Positions 4,048-39,993 of a stretch of DNA of 54,188 bases are shown here, piece after piece. Each line of letters opens with the position of its first letter. The stretch's first letter is position 1. The stretch comes from a virus (lineage: Duplodnaviria; Caudoviricetes): positions 1-54,188 of the IMG/VR virus record IMGVR_UViG_3300032770_000026; one strand, given 5' to 3'. The notes under the pieces were generated by a model. The model was not told the origin of the DNA. It saw only the letters and a list, made by a program, of their open reading frames with translations, and did no database searches. The position numbers and the translations under genes were made by a program.

Positions 4048-4425
4048 ATGACACTATTTGAAAAGAAACAAGAAATAATTTGCTTGAATCAAAGCAAAGA
4101 CGGATTAAGCACGAATGAATTAACGGAATTGCTTAATGAATATCGAATACTAGCAGTTGAACAATTTTTAATAACCCCTAAATTCTGGACTTTAATAGGT
4201 CGGTATATCCTCAGGATTTTAGGATTGCCATTTTTTAGCGCAATAGCCTTAATCTACTGTATTATTCAGTTTTTTGTATTTGTTATTAATTTCATTCGCT
4301 GGGGTGGTCAATCAATCGCATATACAAGGCATGTAAATTATAAGACTATTGCGGATGTCTATTTGAAGGTTGAAGAACTTGTAAATAAAAAGAAAACAAA
4401 TGAACCATATCTCCAAAACCAATAA
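4048..4425 (+). CDS. Hypothetical membrane protein
   Basis: Long hydrophobic stretch ILGLPFFSAIALIYCIIQFFVFVI; ATG at 4048 preferred. Confidence 0.55.
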   Translation: MTLFEKKQEIICLNQSKDGLSTNELTELLNEYRILAVEQFLITPKFWTLIGRYILRILGLPFFSAIALIYCIIQFFVFVINFIRWGGQSIAYTRHVNYKTIADVYLKVEELVNKKKTNEPYLQNQ

Positions 4426-4786
4426 AGTCCGTCTTTCTACCGGCGAAAAAATATCCCGGATGGAATTCAATAAAAGGATTCATGACGCGAAAGAATTGAA
4501 GTTATCACAGCAATTGAATGAGCATGGTTTAAATTTTTGCCAAGATTGTGCAAATGATAATGAATCTCTATTTAAACTCTTGATTGATGGACAAAAGTTT
4601 ATTAATGATTTAGAATATAGAATATTAGAGTGTTCTCATGAAATCTCAGTCAAAGAATGCGTTGAATCGGGTCGGGCGGAATTAGCCTATGATTTGAATA
4701 ACATGAGAATACGATGTCATTATCATCATAAAATAAAGGATGAGTTAAACTTAAAATTCAAACAATATGAAAACACTAGCGATTGA
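4400..4786 (+). CDS. NinG/HNH-like endonuclease
   Basis: CQDC ... CSHEIS ... NNMRIRCHYHH zinc/HNH-type pattern. Confidence 0.6.
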   Translation: MNHISKTNKVRLSTGEKISRMEFNKRIHDAKELKLSQQLNEHGLNFCQDCANDNESLFKLLIDGQKFINDLEYRILECSHEISVKECVESGRAELAYDLNNMRIRCHYHHKIKDELNLKFKQYENTSD

Positions 4787-4973
4787 TCCAGGTAATATTG
4801 AATCAGCTTTTGTAATTTGGGATGGAGAAATAATCTATTCGAAAGGAAAATTAAAGAATGAAGATTTATTAAGCACTAACCTTGCTACGAAGAAGGGCTA
4901 TTGCACACAACGTTTGATAATATGGAATGGCTGGGATTCGGAGCTACTAACTTATCCCACGCCACAAAACTAA
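4767..4973 (+). pseudogene. Truncated RuvC-like (RNase H fold) resolvase, interrupted by the cassette array
   Basis: MKTLAIDPGNIESAFV is a RuvC-like N-terminus; after about 35 aa the frame runs into the hairpin site. Confidence 0.6.
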
Positions 4974-5041
4974 TAGGTAGCAAGCTGGCTAAAAAGTCCG
5001 ATAACACCCAGCTATTTTATATTATGTGTTAGCGGTTGTTA
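4902..5041 (+). repeat. attC-like hairpin site 1
   Basis: ACAAC-GTTTG-ATAATATGGAATGGCTGGG (4917-4935) pairs with CCCAGCTATTTTATATTAT (5007-5025)-GT-GTTAGCG. Confidence 0.7.
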
Positions 5042-5045
5042 AATT

Positions 5046-5330
5046 ATGCAGTACAAAAAAGACGAAAATACAATTTGGGAAGATACTGGTAAAATTAAAG
5101 TACATAACTATCCAGCATCTTCAAGAAGTACATATTCATATATAACTCGAACTTATCGTGAAATAAAGAAGGATGCTTTTGGGTGGAAAGAAGTTGATGG
5201 AGAGCCAATTTATTTCCATGATATGACAACTGAACAGGTTACATTAGCGATGATTATGGGACAGGCTGAAAACGCATTAAATAATATTTGCAAGCGTGAG
5301 AAGTTTCTTGTTCCTATTAATAACCGCTAA
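5046..5330 (+). CDS. Hypothetical protein in cassette A
   Basis: ORF bounded by GTTAGCGGTTGTTA and TAATAACCGCTAAC; its stop codon lies inside CGCTAAC. Confidence 0.65.
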   Translation: MQYKKDENTIWEDTGKIKVHNYPASSRSTYSYITRTYREIKKDAFGWKEVDGEPIYFHDMTTEQVTLAMIMGQAENALNNICKREKFLVPINNR

Positions 5331-5691
5331 CGGTTGGCTGTATGATTAGTGCGCCAACCAAATTAGCAGAAATATTGATACGAGTTACAAACTTTAAAAT
5401 ACCGAGCGATGGAAAATTTTGATTATGAACAAATGGAAATGCCAACACCTTGCGAGCATTGCGGTGAGATATTTGACCTTAATGACGGGTATGGCTCTGA
5501 AAAATGGCACAAGAACGTTGTAATATGCGAAAAGTGTTATAGGGAAGAAGAAGCCGAAATAGAAGAAGATGAGCGCTGGGAGGAGATAAACATTGAAATT
5601 AGCAATGCTATCTACCACCTTAAAGAAGAGGGCGCGTGGGCAAAACTTACGGACGAGAACCGCGCATTAATTATACAGCATGTTAGCGGTT
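5322..5691 (+). repeat. attC-like hairpin site 2 with a ~307-nt coding loop
   Basis: AACCGCTAAC-GGTTG-GCTGTATGATTAGTGCGC (5337-5354) pairs with GCGCATTAATTATACAGC (5662-5679)-AT-GTTAGCGGTT. Confidence 0.75.
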
Positions 5692-5765
5692 CGTTGCCTG
5701 ATAAACACCCAGACACTGAAGCTGACGGCTATGTATTTTGCGGCAAATGTGGAAAGATGAAATAA
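5409..5765 (+). CDS. Zinc-finger hypothetical protein reading through the right arm of site 2
   Basis: CEHC, CEKC and terminal CGKC motifs; LIIQHVSGS is encoded by the hairpin arm. Confidence 0.65.
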   Translation: MENFDYEQMEMPTPCEHCGEIFDLNDGYGSEKWHKNVVICEKCYREEEAEIEEDERWEEINIEISNAIYHLKEEGAWAKLTDENRALIIQHVSGSLPDKHPDTEADGYVFCGKCGKMK

Positions 5766-5865
5766 GCTTTCGGCAATGACCGCTAACTCTTTTATATATA
5801 CACTTCAAAATTTTGCACTAAAATGGAAAGTCAAGAAAGAATCAAACTTTTAAAGTGAATGAATT

Positions 5866-6246
5866 ATGAGGAACGACAGGGAATACCAAATTTGTAAAGC
5901 AATTTCAACATATTTAAAATTTCAGTATCCAAATGTTATTTTTCATTTTGATTATGCTGGGCTACATTTAACCAAGGCTCAAGCCGGGAAAATGAAGGAA
6001 ATACAAGGTGGAAAGGGATGGCCGGATTTGTTTATTGCAGAGCCAAAGCATAATTATCATGGTTTGTTTTTGGAAATCAAAAAAGAAAATGAGCGACTTT
6101 ATAAAAAGATTAGCCGAATTCCAATAACCGAGCATATTCAATATCAAATTAATCAAATTATTACGCTTAACAAAAAAAATTATTGTGCTTGTTTTGCAAT
6201 TGGATTTGATGAGGCAAAAAAAATTATTGATGGATATTTAGGTTAA
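5866..6246 (+). CDS. VRR-NUC (PD-(D/E)XK) nuclease, probable Holliday junction resolvase
   Basis: GWPDLFI ... GLFLEIK motif, C-terminal GFDEA. Confidence 0.85.
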   Translation: MRNDREYQICKAISTYLKFQYPNVIFHFDYAGLHLTKAQAGKMKEIQGGKGWPDLFIAEPKHNYHGLFLEIKKENERLYKKISRIPITEHIQYQINQIITLNKKNYCACFAIGFDEAKKIIDGYLG

Positions 6247-6595
6247 TACCTAGCCTATTTTAACGTCAAATAATCAAATTTAAAAGAACAACCCCTTAAA
6301 CAAGGATAAGTATCAAAAACGAAAAATAATTGATTTAAACGCTTAAAAACGCAAAATATGAAATTTGAAGATTTGAAATTTTGTGAGGAGTTTGAAAAGA
6401 AATATAAATCGTTAGAACTTTTATTATTGATAAAAGACAATCTAACAGAGAAAGGACGAAAGGAATATTTTGAGTTAAAAACCTATATTCTCAACAATCT
6501 GGACAAATATATGGAATTAACCAACTAAGTCAAATAAAATCAACATAATGATATTAAATCATAACTAATTGATTAATAACTTAAGTCTAAAAAAT

Positions 6596-29358: not shown

Positions 29359-30128
29359 GCGCTTATTCTACGATAATTTCCTTTATACAATCAGCAATGC
29401 CTGAGCTTAATAGCACAAGCGTTGCCGGGATTGTTAATAAAATGGCCGAGGCCAACGGGCAAGTAATAGATAATACTTTAGCGGAGTTAACCAATACAGA
29501 GACTATTATTACTCAAACTATAACCGATAAAAACGACGGTCATTCGGGATCGTATATTGCCAATGCTTTAGCTTACCAAGAAGGTGATAACCTTTCTATT
29601 GATGCGAACGGTAATTATTACTATGCTGTTATTGATACAACAAAGCAAATCATAAAGCAAGCTGCATTTAAAGAAGTAATAAGTGGGTCAAGTGCTTCAC
29701 TTGTGCTAAAAGTGGCTTATATTGATCCTAATACCGGACTTTTAGCAGCCTTACCGACAAATAAAAAAACCGCCTTTGATAGTTACTTCAGATTGTTTGA
29801 AAAACCAGGTCTACCGGTAACAAAAATTTCTAATGATCCGAATACATTAGCTTTTGATGCTCTTATAACTTATGATCCCACTTATGATTATACTATTCTT
29901 CAAACAAATGTTGCTGCTGCGTTAATTACTTTCCGGGATAACTTCACTTTTAATGGGACATTCAGGAATTACTATTTGGAAAACTATTTAGTTACAAACG
30001 TGCCTGGAGTTAACGCAGTTTATCTATCAAATACGACTATTGATGCGGTACCTTTTTCAGGGGATACTGTGCTTTCAGCTGGGTACTTTAATTTTGGAAC
30101 TGTAAACGTAACTTATGAATCAATTTAA
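29355..30128 (+). CDS. Baseplate wedge protein (J-like)
   Basis: Y..NALAYQ.GD, LKVA, FNG, VPGV, AGYF. Confidence 0.65.
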   Translation: MSAYSTIISFIQSAMPELNSTSVAGIVNKMAEANGQVIDNTLAELTNTETIITQTITDKNDGHSGSYIANALAYQEGDNLSIDANGNYYYAVIDTTKQIIKQAAFKEVISGSSASLVLKVAYIDPNTGLLAALPTNKKTAFDSYFRLFEKPGLPVTKISNDPNTLAFDALITYDPTYDYTILQTNVAAALITFRDNFTFNGTFRNYYLENYLVTNVPGVNAVYLSNTTIDAVPFSGDTVLSAGYFNFGTVNVTYESI

Positions 30129-30637: not shown

Positions 30638-31633
30638 ATGTCTAATAAAATTCAATTTCCAAACAATAGATTAACGCCTCCGGCTTTAGGCAAACCGGTA
30701 TTTGCGACAGATATTCAAAATAATACTGAAAATTTGCTTGAGGCAATGAATATCCTTTTAGGATTACCAGCTTCAGGAGGTACGGCTTTTGCAATACTAT
30801 CAGGTCTTACTTATAATGAAAGCGAAGGGACCTATGACCCTGGTTATGTTTATATGAATGGAGTTATATACTACAGTGCTGATATAATATATGATCCATG
30901 TTACCTTGTACCAAATGTAACTGATACTGAATCTAAATTGCATAATCCGGATGGAAATTCTTATAATACTTATCGTATCTATTATGCGATTTCAAGCTCG
31001 TCCCCATCTGGGGGAATGCCTCAATTTACAGGTTCTATGGATCAATATCGGTTAAGTATAGTTTTAGCTAAATCACAAGCAATCGCAACTGCGGCTGCGG
31101 ATGCAACTTCAAAAGCTAATACGGCGCAATCTAATGCTGAAGAATATACTGATAATGCAATTTCAGGATTAGGAACAGCGGCAACTAAAGATGTAGGATT
31201 AGCTGCAAACAACGTTTTGCAAAGCGATGGAATGAGTAGGGATAAATTTACAATGACAAGTGATCAGTATGATAAGTTGGTTACTGTTGAAGATGATTTT
31301 GTATGTCGGAGAGCAACAGGGATGAAACAACCAAAAATTATTGAGATTACAAATTATAATATGAATACTGGTGGAGCTGTATCTGAAATTTCTATTGCAC
31401 ATGGATTGACTTATTCAAAAATAATAGGATGCCGAGTTATTATCGAAAATGACGAAGAGACATTAAAAAATGTAATTTCAGGGACTAATGGCAATGGAAG
31501 TTCGACAGCCTGTTATTATGAAGTAAATGGAACTAATATTCGCATAATTAATGAAATTGGTAGTACATATTGCAGTTCCTCTTATGATGGCACAGGACAT
31601 AGAGGATGGATTATTATAGATAATATAGCTTAA
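30638..31633 (+). CDS. Tail fibre protein
   Basis: AILSG..PGYVYMNG N-terminus, DATSKANTAQ coil, GLGTAATKDVG fibre motif, IAHGL C-terminal domain. Confidence 0.7.
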   Translation: MSNKIQFPNNRLTPPALGKPVFATDIQNNTENLLEAMNILLGLPASGGTAFAILSGLTYNESEGTYDPGYVYMNGVIYYSADIIYDPCYLVPNVTDTESKLHNPDGNSYNTYRIYYAISSSSPSGGMPQFTGSMDQYRLSIVLAKSQAIATAAADATSKANTAQSNAEEYTDNAISGLGTAATKDVGLAANNVLQSDGMSRDKFTMTSDQYDKLVTVEDDFVCRRATGMKQPKIIEITNYNMNTGGAVSEISIAHGLTYSKIIGCRVIIENDEETLKNVISGTNGNGSSTACYYEVNGTNIRIINEIGSTYCSSSYDGTGHRGWIIIDNIA

Positions 31634-32565
31634 TTTGAAAAATGATTAGCTTCATTTTCAAAATAGTTATTTGAATAACCATTAACTAAATCATTTATAG
31701 CGTAAGTTGAAAGAAAATTTAGGTTTATATTGAGATGATTTAATATCTTGTTATTTGAATTTGGAGTAAATAAATCAAATTCAGTATATTGTAAAGCATG
31801 AATAAATTCATGTTTTAAATTAGCCTTAAAATCGGAATTGGAATATTTTAAAGGTTTAAAATAAGGATCATTATTTTTGAAAGCTGTTATTGTATTTCCC
31901 AATGATTGGCCAACTGTTAAGCCTTCAGTAATTGGTTTATGAGATGAAATAAACACTATTGATCCAGTTAATAATGTTTGTTTAATATTGAATGAATATC
32001 CTTTTGAAAAACTTAAATAAGCTATATATCCTATTATTGCAGGATCAATTTTAATTGATATTTTATGAAAACTAGCTTGAAAATTAAAACAATAAAGTGT
32101 TAAATATAAATTAGATGTAATTGGCTTATTATTATATCCATTGATTATAATTGATTGACCTATTGAATGAATTAATCTTGAAGTTAGCAAAAAATCATTT
32201 TGTTTTACCGAATATTTGGCCGTATAGTTAATAGCACCTCCAATAGCGCCCTTATATAATCCCTTAATCATTGCATGAGTGAATTTTTCTCCTTTTTTAT
32301 GATGAAATCCCGAACCAATTCCGCTAACTAAACTCGAAGAAATGACATTATAAGCAGCATATTTTAAGTCGTTTTGTGCCTGACAAATAACTGGAATCAT
32401 AAAGAATAAAACCAATATTTTTAGATTCTTGTTAATAAACTTTTCAACAAGCTTAGATGCATGCTTTGTTAAGGTAGTCTTATTTTCCTTGCAGAACTTT
32501 TTATAAAGTTTGTGATTTTCAGGCGAAAGCCTTACATTAAATTTTGGTAATTTGTTCTTGTACAT
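31630..32565 (-). CDS. Ribbon-helix-helix domain fused to a membrane/exported HExxH zincin-like domain
   Basis: KFNVRLSPENHKLYKKFCKENKTTLT; ILVLFFMIPVICQA-Q; KHEFIHALQY...FENEAN. Confidence 0.6.
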   Translation of the reverse strand: MYKNKLPKFNVRLSPENHKLYKKFCKENKTTLTKHASKLVEKFINKNLKILVLFFMIPVICQAQNDLKYAAYNVISSSLVSGIGSGFHHKKGEKFTHAMIKGLYKGAIGGAINYTAKYSVKQNDFLLTSRLIHSIGQSIIINGYNNKPITSNLYLTLYCFNFQASFHKISIKIDPAIIGYIAYLSFSKGYSFNIKQTLLTGSIVFISSHKPITEGLTVGQSLGNTITAFKNNDPYFKPLKYSNSDFKANLKHEFIHALQYTEFDLFTPNSNNKILNHLNINLNFLSTYAINDLVNGYSNNYFENEANHFSN

Positions 32566-32575
32566 GACAGTAAAA

Positions 32576-32761
32576 TTAAAATGAAATAGCAAACTGTGAT
32601 CCTATTTTCATGAGTTTTGCGCCTGTTTGCGCTGAAAAATAGGTTAAAATCTTTTCTTCCGACCAACTATTTAATATAGAATCAACTACTTTATCAAGTA
32701 TTGATTGTTCTGTGCTTTGTGGCCTGTAACACATTTCTATTATTTCTCTTTTGCTGTACAT
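32576..32761 (-). CDS. Hypothetical protein
   Basis: First gene of the reverse-strand pair. Confidence 0.55.
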   Translation of the reverse strand: MYSKREIIEMCYRPQSTEQSILDKVVDSILNSWSEEKILTYFSAQTGAKLMKIGSQFAISF

Positions 32762-32792: not shown

Positions 32793-32808
32793 AAAGTTAC
32801 GTAACTTT
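32793..32808. promoter_or_regulatory. Perfect 16-bp palindrome over the -7 box of the reverse-strand promoter
   Basis: AAAGTTACGTAACTTT; minus strand reads TTG-N20-TAACTTTC. Confidence 0.6.
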
Positions 32809-32857
32809 GTTGTAATAAACAACATGTTTTAGAGCATAAGTGTTTTTATATTAAAGG

Positions 32858-33102
32858 AATCCCCTCATAAAGTTACGTAACTTATACAATTTATTCCTAA
32901 ACTAGAGATATTGATAATCAATATGTTAAGTGTTTTTGATGTATAAAAATATAACAAAAAATATAGTTTTTATAACTAATTGATTTACTGTTAGATTATC
33001 TTCTGGAGAGGGCTATATTTAAAATCAACCTTGGCATTTGGGCGTAAAACTTATTCTGAGACCGTGTAGAGAATTTATAGACCTTGAAAGGCTTGTTTAA
33101 TC
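32858..33102 (-). repeat. Non-coding module, copy 2
   Basis: Inverted copy of 13727-13972; AAGTTACGTAACTT at 32870-32883. Confidence 0.9.
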
Positions 33103-38914: not shown

Positions 38915-38992
38915 ATGAAAATAAAAAATAAACCGGTCGGCGACGATGACCCTCCAAGGCCACCAAACCCGCCCAATCCATTTAAATTATGA
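38915..38992 (+). CDS. 25-aa proline-rich peptide
   Basis: MKIKNKPVGDDDPPRPPNPPNPFKL, ATGA-coupled to the next gene. Confidence 0.4.
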   Translation: MKIKNKPVGDDDPPRPPNPPNPFKL

Positions 38993-39345
38993 AAACAACA
39001 GTATGCTTAGTATTTATGTGCCTATATGCTATTTATGCAATTTTCGGAGACAAACCATTCCTTTTTAATAGCTTTTGGCGTAGTTTTATTTGGATACTTG
39101 CCTGGGGATTTTCGGCAACATTATTGATTTTAGGGATATCCAAACAAGAAAGCCTATTTGATATTTCAGTCCAGGTAAGCACTATAATTTTACTTACTTT
39201 ACTTTGCGCCTTTTATTTGTTAATCATAAATAAGCCAAAGGCCGAATTTAGTAGGCTTTGTAATTATTGGATTTTAGCTTATGCCTTTGCCGCTTTTGTG
39301 CCTGTTTCTATATTTATAAGTTATGTTATTAAAATTCTGAAATGA
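38989..39345 (+). CDS. Four-TM membrane protein
   Basis: Four hydrophobic segments. Confidence 0.6.
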   Translation: MKTTVCLVFMCLYAIYAIFGDKPFLFNSFWRSFIWILAWGFSATLLILGISKQESLFDISVQVSTIILLTLLCAFYLLIINKPKAEFSRLCNYWILAYAFAAFVPVSIFISYVIKILK

Positions 39346-39563: not shown

Positions 39564-39993
39564 AATTAAGCGGATTGAGGAAGTTGTTGTTAAAACATTA
39601 TGTAGTAAAATAGAAACTGAATTAAACACAAAGTTTAATAATTATTTTAAAGGCGTTAAGCTCCTTATGGTTTCATTAACTACTTTATTTCTTGCCTTTG
39701 TAGGATTATCATTGACTAATATGGTTAGTTTGTCATCTTTTAAAGGTGACGTTCAATCAATTATTGTTGACTTAAAAAATCAGGATCAAAAAAATAGCGA
39801 TAATATAAAGAGCATAAAAGTTGAAATTGCATTACCCGTTCAACTAGCATTAGCAAAGGCCAATATGGTTGAAGCACTGCAAACAAAAGATATGGCATCC
39901 TATTATAAGTACAGCGAAATAGTTACTCAGTTGCAAATTGATATTCTTAAATTTAAATATCCTGATGACGAAAAAACAAGAGGTACTAAATGA
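39550..39993 (+). CDS. Single-TM coiled-coil protein (lysis region)
   Basis: TM helix followed by heptad pattern. Confidence 0.55.
   Translation: MNENEIKRIEEVVVKTLCSKIETELNTKFNNYFKGVKLLMVSLTTLFLAFVGLSLTNMVSLSSFKGDVQSIIVDLKNQDQKNSDNIKSIKVEIALPVQLALAKANMVEALQTKDMASYYKYSEIVTQLQIDILKFKYPDDEKTRGTK

Follow-up and report, generated by a model that had tools for sequence, protein, structure and literature searches.

Integrons are known for the capture of whole genes in bacteria. In shufflons and other invertible segments, such as R64 pilV/Rci, Mu G and P1 C, a constant N-terminus is joined to alternative C-termini bounded by inverted repeats, and Rickettsia palindromic elements are selfish palindromes, copies of one sequence, inserted in frame within genes. 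This work describes a run of hairpin-bounded units in an entire virus record from a metagenome assembly (54,188 bases, estimated to be 88% complete; hereafter the window), and the composite gene at 5409-5765 that is written across two of them. We lean towards reading positions 4904-5787 as an integron-like cassette array, resembling a cluster of attC sites lacking integron integrases (CALIN), in which half-genes would be shuffled in frame through structure-specific recombination at GTT/AAC cores.

In Polaribacter phage P12002L, Qi et al. (2023, PMC9892861) describe a CALIN that comprises a pair of methyltransferase genes along with two predicted attC sites, of which IntI1 recombined one into attI1. 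In the system of Nivina et al. (2020, PMC7439510), synthetic attC sites were engineered into protein linkers and tested with IntI1; the same paper gives the consensus R boxes of attC as 5'-RYYYAAC-3' ... 5'-GTTRRRY-3', and the size of natural sites as 53-152 nt, with a variable terminal structure (VTS) of 3-100 nt. The regulatory cassettes of T4-type phages treated by Arbiol et al. (2010, PMC2839356) are promoter early stem-loops (PeSLs), defined as intergenic direct repeats of a sigma70-like early promoter followed by a terminator stem-loop. Reports thus exist of attC sites carried by phages and of synthetic ones placed in coding sequence. A limited keyword search of the open-access literature, which is not proof of absence, found no description of genes nested in site loops or of in-frame tail cassettes.

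A composite gene spanning a hairpin site and a tail cassette

The units of the window are marked by an exact 9-mer, GTTAGCGGT, which occurs four times in the 54 kb, with all copies lying within 760 bp and alternating between strands (5028+, 5323-, 5682+ and 5779-). When up to one mismatch is allowed there are nine matches in the window versus 4.66 expected, so that what is non-random is how closely the exact copies lie together. Searching the window for further inverted pairs of the GTT...AAC type gave 43, versus about 27 in shuffled sequence, and just the two units described here stand out.

Two hairpin sites and two cassettes follow one another in this interval (Table 1). Site 1 runs from ...CACAAC, through a 5-nt spacer (GTTTG), a stem of 4918-4935 with 5006-5023 (G-T pairs included) and a loop of about 70 nt, to the first GTTAGCGGT. 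Cassette A (5028-5331, 304 bp) is closed by a 15-nt inverted repeat with 5028-5042 that is 93% complementary. Site 2 pairs 5322-5332 with 5681-5691, 5335-5336 with 5679-5680, and 5338-5354 with 5662-5678, leaving a loop of 307 nt. Cassette B consists of the arm GTTAGCGGT (5682-5690), TCG, an inner helix of TTGCC (5694-5698) with GGCAA (5772-5776) that encloses the body of the cassette, TG, and the arm ACCGCTAAC (5779-5787). Downstream of it there is no further hairpin.

An earlier note on this DNA had claimed that a gene starts within the roughly 307-nt loop of site 2, crosses the right arm of the hairpin, and ends in a cassette of about 100 bp that has no start of its own. The anatomy bears this out: the start codon at 5409 lies within the folded loop (5355-5661), and cassette B, which contains no plausible start codon, supplies codons 92-118 and the stop at 5763-5765. 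A conserved 5' leader (5337-5408) accompanies the N-terminal module in the loop. The codons at 5682-5693 read VSGS, and the tail is SLPDKHPDTEADGYVFCGKCGKMK, which ends in CGKCGKMK rather than in CGKC, as the note had it.

The join between the two halves is also apparent in the predicted protein. An AlphaFold model (mean predicted local distance difference test score, pLDDT, of 79.4) comprises a zinc ribbon, three helices extending to residue 94, a low-confidence linker, and a small hairpin at CGKC; as the helices end at residue 94, and the linker comes next, the junction is predicted to fall at a domain border. A fold search with this model returned no match at E <= 0.001, only generic zinc fingers. 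The family Lar_restr_allev (PF14354) scored 20.8 bits over residues 14-58, short of its cut-off of 28.6, and the protein falls in PHROG 14808, to which no function is assigned. It therefore appears from these comparisons to be a small zinc-ribbon protein of an early-type gene region, with a sub-threshold likeness to Lar.

Table 1. Positions of the hairpin sites, cassettes and reading frames in the window (MFE, minimum free energy; ORF, open reading frame).
Feature	Positions	Strand	Remarks
Site 1, upstream hairpin site	4904..5036	+	MFE and centroid fold
GTTAGCGGT, R'-like core of site 1 and 5' arm of cassette A	5028..5036	+	
Cargo of cassette A, complete 94-aa gene	5046..5330	+	own start; TAA stop within right arm
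Site 2, attC-like hairpin, 370 nt	5322..5691	+	MFE and centroid fold of the + strand
ACCGCTAAC, 3' arm of cassette A and R''-like core of site 2	5323..5331	+	
Composite ORF, 118 aa	5409..5765	+	spans junction at 5682
N-terminal module, 91 codons	5409..5681	+	Cys4 zinc ribbon, then helices
Cassette B, tail unit, 106 nt	5682..5787	+	

Some further observations concern the array and its borders. A near-identical direct repeat, T(A/C)TTTTATAT, is found at 5012-5021 and 5788-5797, one copy just outside the first GTTAGCGGT and the other immediately behind the last ACCGCTAAC; it may have arisen by chance, the DNA being AT-rich, or else reflect target duplication around the entire 760-bp block. A 68-aa ORF at 4767-4973, which begins MKTLAIDPGN... 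and has no Pfam or PHROG hit, enters site 1 and stops in its loop. Its N-terminus presumably resembles those of RuvC-type resolvases, and it may be a truncated gene or a further N-terminal module.

In-frame tail units and the mixing of modules

Units built like cassette B recur in viral sequence. The search pattern GTTAGCRRTTCG-N60-90-TGAYYGCTAAC matched 49 IMG/VR loci versus eight in 596 Gb of prokaryote genomes. With equal base use, the estimated chance rate is one match per about 7x10^10 bases, so the eight prokaryote matches are at around chance level; two of them (L078 and L083) lack the inner helix. The viral collection, if it is much smaller than the prokaryote set as we assume, appears strongly enriched in these units. 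They are about 100-113 bp long, are read in frame as GTT AGC NNT TCG (V-S-x-S), and encode a tail of about 30 aa, often with the pattern CxxC...CxxC. All but two of the 49 continue the reading frame of an ORF upstream that is open for 17-96 codons, the exceptions being one unit at a contig edge and one with a stop two codons upstream. Every unit has its own stop built into TG-ANNGCTAAC, as TAA (in GCTAAC) in 37 cases and TGA in 12. This right arm (5777-5787 in the window, and likewise in all 49 units) has stops in two of the three frames (TGA and TAA), and the left arm GTTAGC has TAG in one frame, in which ORF 4901-5032 terminates. At L050 (490-679), the tail unit of L087 recurs at 90% identity, one base out of frame and with a stop two codons before it, and may be a decayed copy or a sequencing error.

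The paired elements of these units co-vary. Fully complementary arms are present in 36 of the 49, and 11 of the 13 others are copies of one unit. In an alignment of the 44 distinct units, 95.2% of cells were paired versus 79.7% when shuffled (none of 500 shuffles was as high), with slid controls at 18-50%. The inner 6-bp helix, which lies outside the search pattern, was 89% paired, with all six pairs co-varying. Among stem mismatches there was no wobble bias of the RNA type: G-T and A-C mismatches numbered 6 versus 7, and 5 versus 4, and this absence of a G-T excess fits DNA rather than RNA pairing. An outer third helix, of upstream CGCCAACC with downstream GGTTnGC, was considered and rejected, as its pairing was no better than that of permuted pairs; the CGCCAACC stretch pairs instead with a partner 100-200 nt upstream.

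This upstream pairing places N-terminal modules inside hairpins, much as in site 2. For the 20 or so nucleotides that precede GTTAGC, an exact reverse complement of 8-13 nt exists in 24 of 40 units, versus 5 of 40 for a control stretch. This partner lies 97-196 nt upstream in 22 of these 24, and 368 and 408 nt upstream in the other two, and in 20 of 24 it is preceded by TAAC or CAAC and 5-6 nt. Enclosure of N-terminal modules by an AAC...GTT hairpin thus appears to be general, in agreement with the proposal that cargo lies within the recombination site itself, unlike in classical attC.

The modules are also found in different combinations. One tail can stand behind different N-terminal modules, with the homology spanning GTT to AAC, as in the groups T2 (L039, L044, L047 and L049) and T3 (L034, L054 and L081), and one N-terminal module can carry different tails; the sequence downstream of the same tail unit differs between loci. 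In total the loci contain 124 perfect 9-bp GTTAGNNNN...NNNNCTAAC pairs at 90-1300 nt, and one contig (L029) has six such pairs with five different triplets.

Relatives of the window's composite protein extend this pattern. A search of 5.8 billion proteins with the 118-aa sequence returned 121 hits, of which 97 share the N-terminal part, and 73 of these 97 reach the junction. With the window's own protein, these make 74 sequences: 25 end no more than 15 residues past the junction, and 49 continue for at least 15 aa, their long tails falling in 35 unrelated clusters. The tail starts with a GTT-encoded Val in 35 of the 49, with VS in 25 and with VSxS in 15. Hence relatives of the N-terminal part are not colinear across the junction, as the earlier note had predicted. 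In those homologues with long VSNS tails for which DNA was available, GTTAGCAAT...ATTGCTAAC flank the tail, with compensatory change in both arms. These carriers are L002/L007 and L006/L088 (two contigs, each seen twice), together with L087. Overall, arms were present in 2 of 23 viral loci and in 2 of the 26 metagenome loci examined (of 39), the rest being shorter or diverged and without the motif.

The hairpin around the N-terminal module is conserved in the same contigs. In L087 and L088 the leader is conserved from directly behind ...TAAC/TAAT onwards, and its stem half G(C/T)TGTATGAT varies in concert with ATTATACA(G/A)C adjoining GTTAGC, a compensatory switch from C-G to T-A in the stem of site 2. 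Two other samples yielded contigs that match the window over 5336-5686/5695 and then diverge, one of them continuing with a tail like that of P0002; contigs matching about 4909-5035/5041/5048, again from two other samples, then continue as three different sequences after the first GTTAGCGGT. The runs from other samples (four of 24) were read as contigs, which show presence and break points rather than frequencies, and in which gaps in cover are uninformative.

The tail of the window also occurs on its own. Besides the 97 hits, 23 further proteins without the N-terminal module carry PDTEADGYVFCGKCG(K/A)M... behind unrelated sequences. The gene in L004/L005 shares 19 tail codons, including the stop, with the window, and has 11 synonymous and no non-synonymous differences from it, without arms. 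As the differences are only synonymous, the tail is a peptide under purifying selection, rather than a mere translated repeat. The 18-aa C-terminal peptide PDTEADGYVFCGKCGKMK (window 5709-5765; P0098-P0120; L004 10484-10540) is invariant on the 23 otherwise unrelated small proteins. Some of these we take to have DUF551-like N-terminal parts, and the single C-terminal CxxC in PDTEADGYVFCGKCGKMK suggests a shared zinc site or a docking tag.

These combinations qualify two of the earlier claims. That exchange at GTT would swap C-termini agrees with tails that vary from the junction Val onwards, but modules also break on the AAC side. That domains are shuffled, instead of whole genes captured, holds for the half-genes mixed here, but whole-gene cassettes coexist with them, an example being ORF 5046-5330. 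The protein of this gene has no family hit, and no DNA-level relatives of it were found; a protein search found 33 sequences including its own, with 31 of the 33 listed being 88-105 aa long, and its relatives diverge after ...KFL(V/I)PI.

Hairpins of this kind also occur in an 'empty' form of about 57-63 nt, NNNNCTAAC-GG(N3-5)-stem-TCGTTTTAAT-G-stem'-(N)T-GTTAGNNNN. The loop TCGTTTTAAT is common to three short hairpins that were found without specifying a loop, two in P12002L and one in L054, and a pattern search located 30 more IMG/VR loci, giving 27 distinct hairpins (26, and one from P12002L). Across the 26, pairing in the stem (the L helix) reaches 93% and co-variation is seen at 10 of its 11 pairs, the spacers are of 5-7 nt versus 2 nt, and an extra T stands in the 3' half of the stem in eight. 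Several members of the family have the classical core GTTAGGC. A search of IMG/VR for short AAC-GG...T-GTT hairpins with both arms of the GGT type gave no matches.

By blastn, P12002L is the only cultured phage record with such a hairpin. It has few pairs of the exact arm type of the window, yet the hairpins are present, one of them at 30003-30061 between methyltransferase genes and another at about 30850-30960. The main text of PMC9892861 contains none of the hairpin motifs, and the P12002L hairpins may correspond to the sites tested there. Outside the methyltransferase region, P12002L (L086) also has small genes bounded by GTTAG...CTAAC, with gene ends of the form ...GCTAAC-GGACGAG, at 38933-39125, 39707-39833 and 32630-32700.

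The arms of these hairpins match across cassettes, rather than within sites. The four variable arm letters are complementary within the hairpin in just 1 of 27; with the arm at the far end of the neighbouring cassette they are so in 15 of 27 on the upstream side and in 9 of 27 on the downstream side, whereas 1000 permutations gave means of 0.69 and 0.82 and maxima of 4 and 5. The cassette ends of the window are likewise complementary (5028-5036 with 5323-5331, and 5682-5690 with 5779-5787). This is an integron signature, because an integron cassette owes its first bases to its own folded site, and it is not what a reading purely at the level of RNA, or of the local hairpin, would lead one to expect.

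Fit to integron sites, and the rival explanations

The anatomy and co-variation of these units, their complementary ends and in-frame design, and the natural mixing of modules at their junctions can be combined in one scheme. From 5' to 3', a site opens with a ...CTAAC core and a spacer of 5-6 nt; these are followed by a variable stem, a loop, the complement of the stem, a 1-2-nt spacer ending in T, and a GTTAG... core, and the DNA between GTTAGNNNN and NNNNCTAAC behaves like a cassette. The loop can house a leader and the N-terminal 15-95 or so codons of a gene, and cassettes of about 100-113 bp are read in frame from that gene, adding a tail of about 30 aa that stops in the right arm (TGA/TAA in TG-ANNGCTAAC). 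As loop modules and tail cassettes are both in frame, core exchange at GTT/AAC would join any N-terminal module to any tail, ORF 5409-5765 being one such composite. We infer that exchange proceeds by structure-specific, site-specific recombination on folded single strands, through a tyrosine recombinase of the host or a helper, which may cut at G|TT.

The likeness to integrons and CALINs, as the latter are described in PMC9892861, extends to several features. Both have imperfect hairpins with ...AAC/GTT... cores, a second variable stem, unequal spacers, an occasional extra-helical T and a short form of about 57-63 nt; in both, the site is preceded on the same strand by an ORF whose stop it contains, and no integrase is nearby; and in both, a cassette starts with letters that complement the inverse core at its other end. 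Site 2 and the short hairpins have the attC fold of an R helix, an unpaired central spacer, an L helix, candidate extra-helical bases and a variable terminal loop, and site 1 (about 133 nt) and the empty hairpins are within the attC size range. By contrast, the present loops, of up to 307 nt, hold gene leaders and N-terminal halves, the present cassettes are in-frame C-terminal tails that have built-in stops and contain a separate inner helix, hairpin interiors assort independently of bodies, and many units are without a complete downstream site. Moreover, it is the stems that vary here and the loop TCGTTTTAAT that is shared, the reverse of what we would expect of attC.

Several observations weigh against an integron-like array. 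Firstly, tyrosine recombinases are scarce. A search of the window, itself 88% complete, for the tyrosine recombinase family PF00589 gave no match, and the array accordingly lacks the intI integrase that, with its extra domain, would adjoin attI and a Pc promoter in a complete integron; among contigs with tail units, a tyrosine recombinase was found in 7 of 49, and in 3 of the 13 that are at least 90% complete. Closely related recombinases of the Xer/IntI clade, of about 265 aa, are encoded in cassette-array phage contigs at L156 409-1212, L157 664-1455 (-) and L158 643-1455 (-). They are below every curated cut-off, with NCBIfam XerA and integron integrase as their best models, the latter matched in two stretches only; they are candidate enzymes, though most unit-bearing phages are without them. 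Secondly, the sites themselves deviate. In the window CGCTAAC and GTTAGCG each agree with the R-box consensus at five of seven positions, with AAC/GTT present, and site 2 (370 nt, with its 307-nt loop) is far outside the size range of attC. Sites 1 and 2 fold on the plus (sense) strand only, whereas integrons use the bottom strand; the stem of site 2 is absent from the minus-strand MFE structure because several of its pairs are G-T. Nothing in attC corresponds to the inner helix of tail units, and in cassette B, as in many single units, the ...CTAAC arm stands alone, without a complete site downstream. The conservation of the cores is by construction, as the loci were chosen by patterns that fix them.

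Thirdly, the units of exchange differ. A strict integron cassette is a gene with its own attC, and does not predict that parts assort separately. When 14 cassettes were compared with all loci, no shared stretch extended the whole way from one G|TT to the next, identical contigs excepted; what was shared was a hairpin, a body or an upstream module alone, and no gene was found to have been inherited with the hairpin downstream of it. Hairpin interiors, X...X' bodies and N-terminal modules assort separately, with breaks at both the AAC and the GTT cores. Given these poor fits to attC, the array is filed here, as a working assignment, as integron-cassette-like rather than as a proven member.

Other systems that join protein parts resemble the array less closely. 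The synthetic system of PMC7439510 shares a structure-specific site written into linker coding sequence and the in-frame recombination of parts; it is engineered and uses IntI1, whereas the present one is natural, and its site encloses a whole protein module instead of coding for no more than a linker. As in shufflons, a constant N-terminal part meets alternative C-terminal segments at a repeat, with inverted-repeat bounds, but double coding is not apparent, an invertase is lacking nearby, and the alternatives are spread over different genomes rather than kept next to one another. Shufflon-like double coding was considered, as the reverse frame of cassette B is open (ORF 5683-5808), and rejected, as the antisense frames of other units mostly hold stops. 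Like Rickettsia palindromic elements, the units are hairpin-forming DNA of about 100-150 bp that is read in frame as part of a protein, but the present units have no more than their arms in common; their interiors encode unrelated peptides, of which at least one is under purifying selection.

The strongest of the alternatives, which we nonetheless regard as unlikely, is that the hairpins punctuate small early genes, both between and within them, as regulatory or processing signals, while their cores offer microhomology for general or relaxed recombination during co-infection, much as PeSLs do and with no dedicated recombinase. The independent assortment of all three kinds of module, with breaks at both cores, is as expected from such hot spots, as is the lack of a tyrosine recombinase in most of the complete phages with units. 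The loop TCGTTTTAAT shared by three short hairpins suggests sequence-specific recognition of the hairpin, and the folding of the window sites on the sense strand only points the same way. In L075, ...TAAC is followed on each side of one two-module gene by a 44-nt direct repeat, TCGCTCATTCGTG...GCTGACAAAAC, which contains a small hairpin; its copies, located about 220 nt upstream of the unit and directly after it, are likewise in keeping with a hot spot. Yet this alternative leaves unexplained why arms are complementary across a cassette, up to 1300 nt away, and not within a hairpin, and why pairing is strictly Watson-Crick with no G-U excess. The shared cores of 5-9 nt are also short for homologous exchange, and no known Rfam family occurs at the locus.

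PeSLs themselves provide a precedent for modular shuffling through conserved cassettes. As described in PMC2839356, they share with the present motifs short conserved sequences with stem-loops, a setting in regions of small non-essential genes, and a position at the borders of insertions, deletions and replacements. However, PeSLs are intergenic direct repeats of promoter and terminator, whereas the present motifs are inverted and occur within coding sequence, where they preserve the frame and supply stop codons; two of the four in the window lie inside a reading frame or carry its stop. The T4-type cassettes are reportedly the subject of a further paper, by Comeau et al. in 2014.

It is more doubtful still that the GTTAGNNNN...NNNNCTAAC bodies are foldback elements, akin to MITEs (miniature transposable elements with inverted repeats), that insert at the 3' ends of genes and are tolerated because they are read in frame, as Rickettsia palindromic elements are, with the AAC...GTT hairpins as by-products of neighbouring insertions. 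The exchange of the same tail between genes exactly from GTT to AAC (groups T2 and T3) suits such elements, as do terminal inverted repeats that are perfect over 9 bp, an inner helix that gives a closed hairpin, and the solitary state of many units (of 78 sources, being 77 loci and the window, 35 have one pair and 25 none). But MITEs, and transposons with terminal inverted repeats, would be recognised by repeated copies, target-site duplication and a transposase, and none of these was found. The interiors are mutually unrelated, the flanks show no target-site duplication, and the 1430 ORFs of 56 loci include neither a shared transposase nor any protein family common to all loci. The arm letters vary between units, which an end-recognising transposase would not allow, and the AAC...GTT hairpins have co-varying stems of their own and are also found where no such body adjoins.

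Chance similarity or an assembly artefact, which might be entertained for a metagenome assembly in which the 9-mer is not over-represented at up to one mismatch, is ruled out by the four exact copies of alternating orientation within 760 bp, by the same build in 49 and 30 independent viral contigs, a cultured phage genome and contigs from other samples, and by co-variation above all 500 shuffles.

Phage setting and meaning for small phage genes

The window has a G+C content of about 33% and encodes a primase-helicase, DNA methylases, a small terminase, a portal protein, and Mu-F-like and tape-measure proteins; a large terminase gene is probably present. The sole match of the ORF 5409-5765 product in deposited phage records is from Tenacibaculum phage Larrie (residues 1-90, 53% identity), and this match, together with hits to metagenome-assembled genomes of Bacteroidota, suggests a host in that phylum. 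At the DNA level, blastn of 4400-6400 against phage records matched nothing. No Rfam family reached its gathering score across the window, just four weak and irrelevant matches lying within 4300-6400, and nothing at the locus pointed to a group I or II intron or a ribozyme.

Two small nuclease-like genes flank the array, at 4400-4786 and 5866-6246. One is rich in Cys and His, with a CHYHH motif and without a family hit; the other is VRR-NUC/PD-(D/E)XK-like, below the Pfam cut-off, and falls in PHROG 5702, Holliday junction resolvase. Elsewhere, two copies of the palindrome GTTACGTAAC stand 76 nt apart in AT-rich intergenic DNA at 32796-32881, adjoining the window's only long minus-strand ORF (31630-32592).

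The same kind of site that captures whole genes in integrons seems, in these phages, to delimit the halves of genes, with frame and stops designed into the site. If recombination at these sites were shown, this would be a natural mechanism for the in-frame shuffling of protein domains; it would explain part of the mosaicism of small phage genes, and would provide a second, natural set of structure-specific sites for engineering. The findings also point to a family of Cys-rich tails of about 30 aa, one of which is strictly conserved on at least 23 unrelated proteins. More tentatively, Bacteroidota phages may possess a natural 'exon-shuffling integron', in which recombination sites within the linkers of small early proteins allow N-terminal modules and zinc-knuckle tails to be recombined in frame, both within and between phages. 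Such a system would generate combinatorial libraries of small proteins, perhaps of counter-defence factors, and would be the natural counterpart of the synthetic attC-in-linker system.

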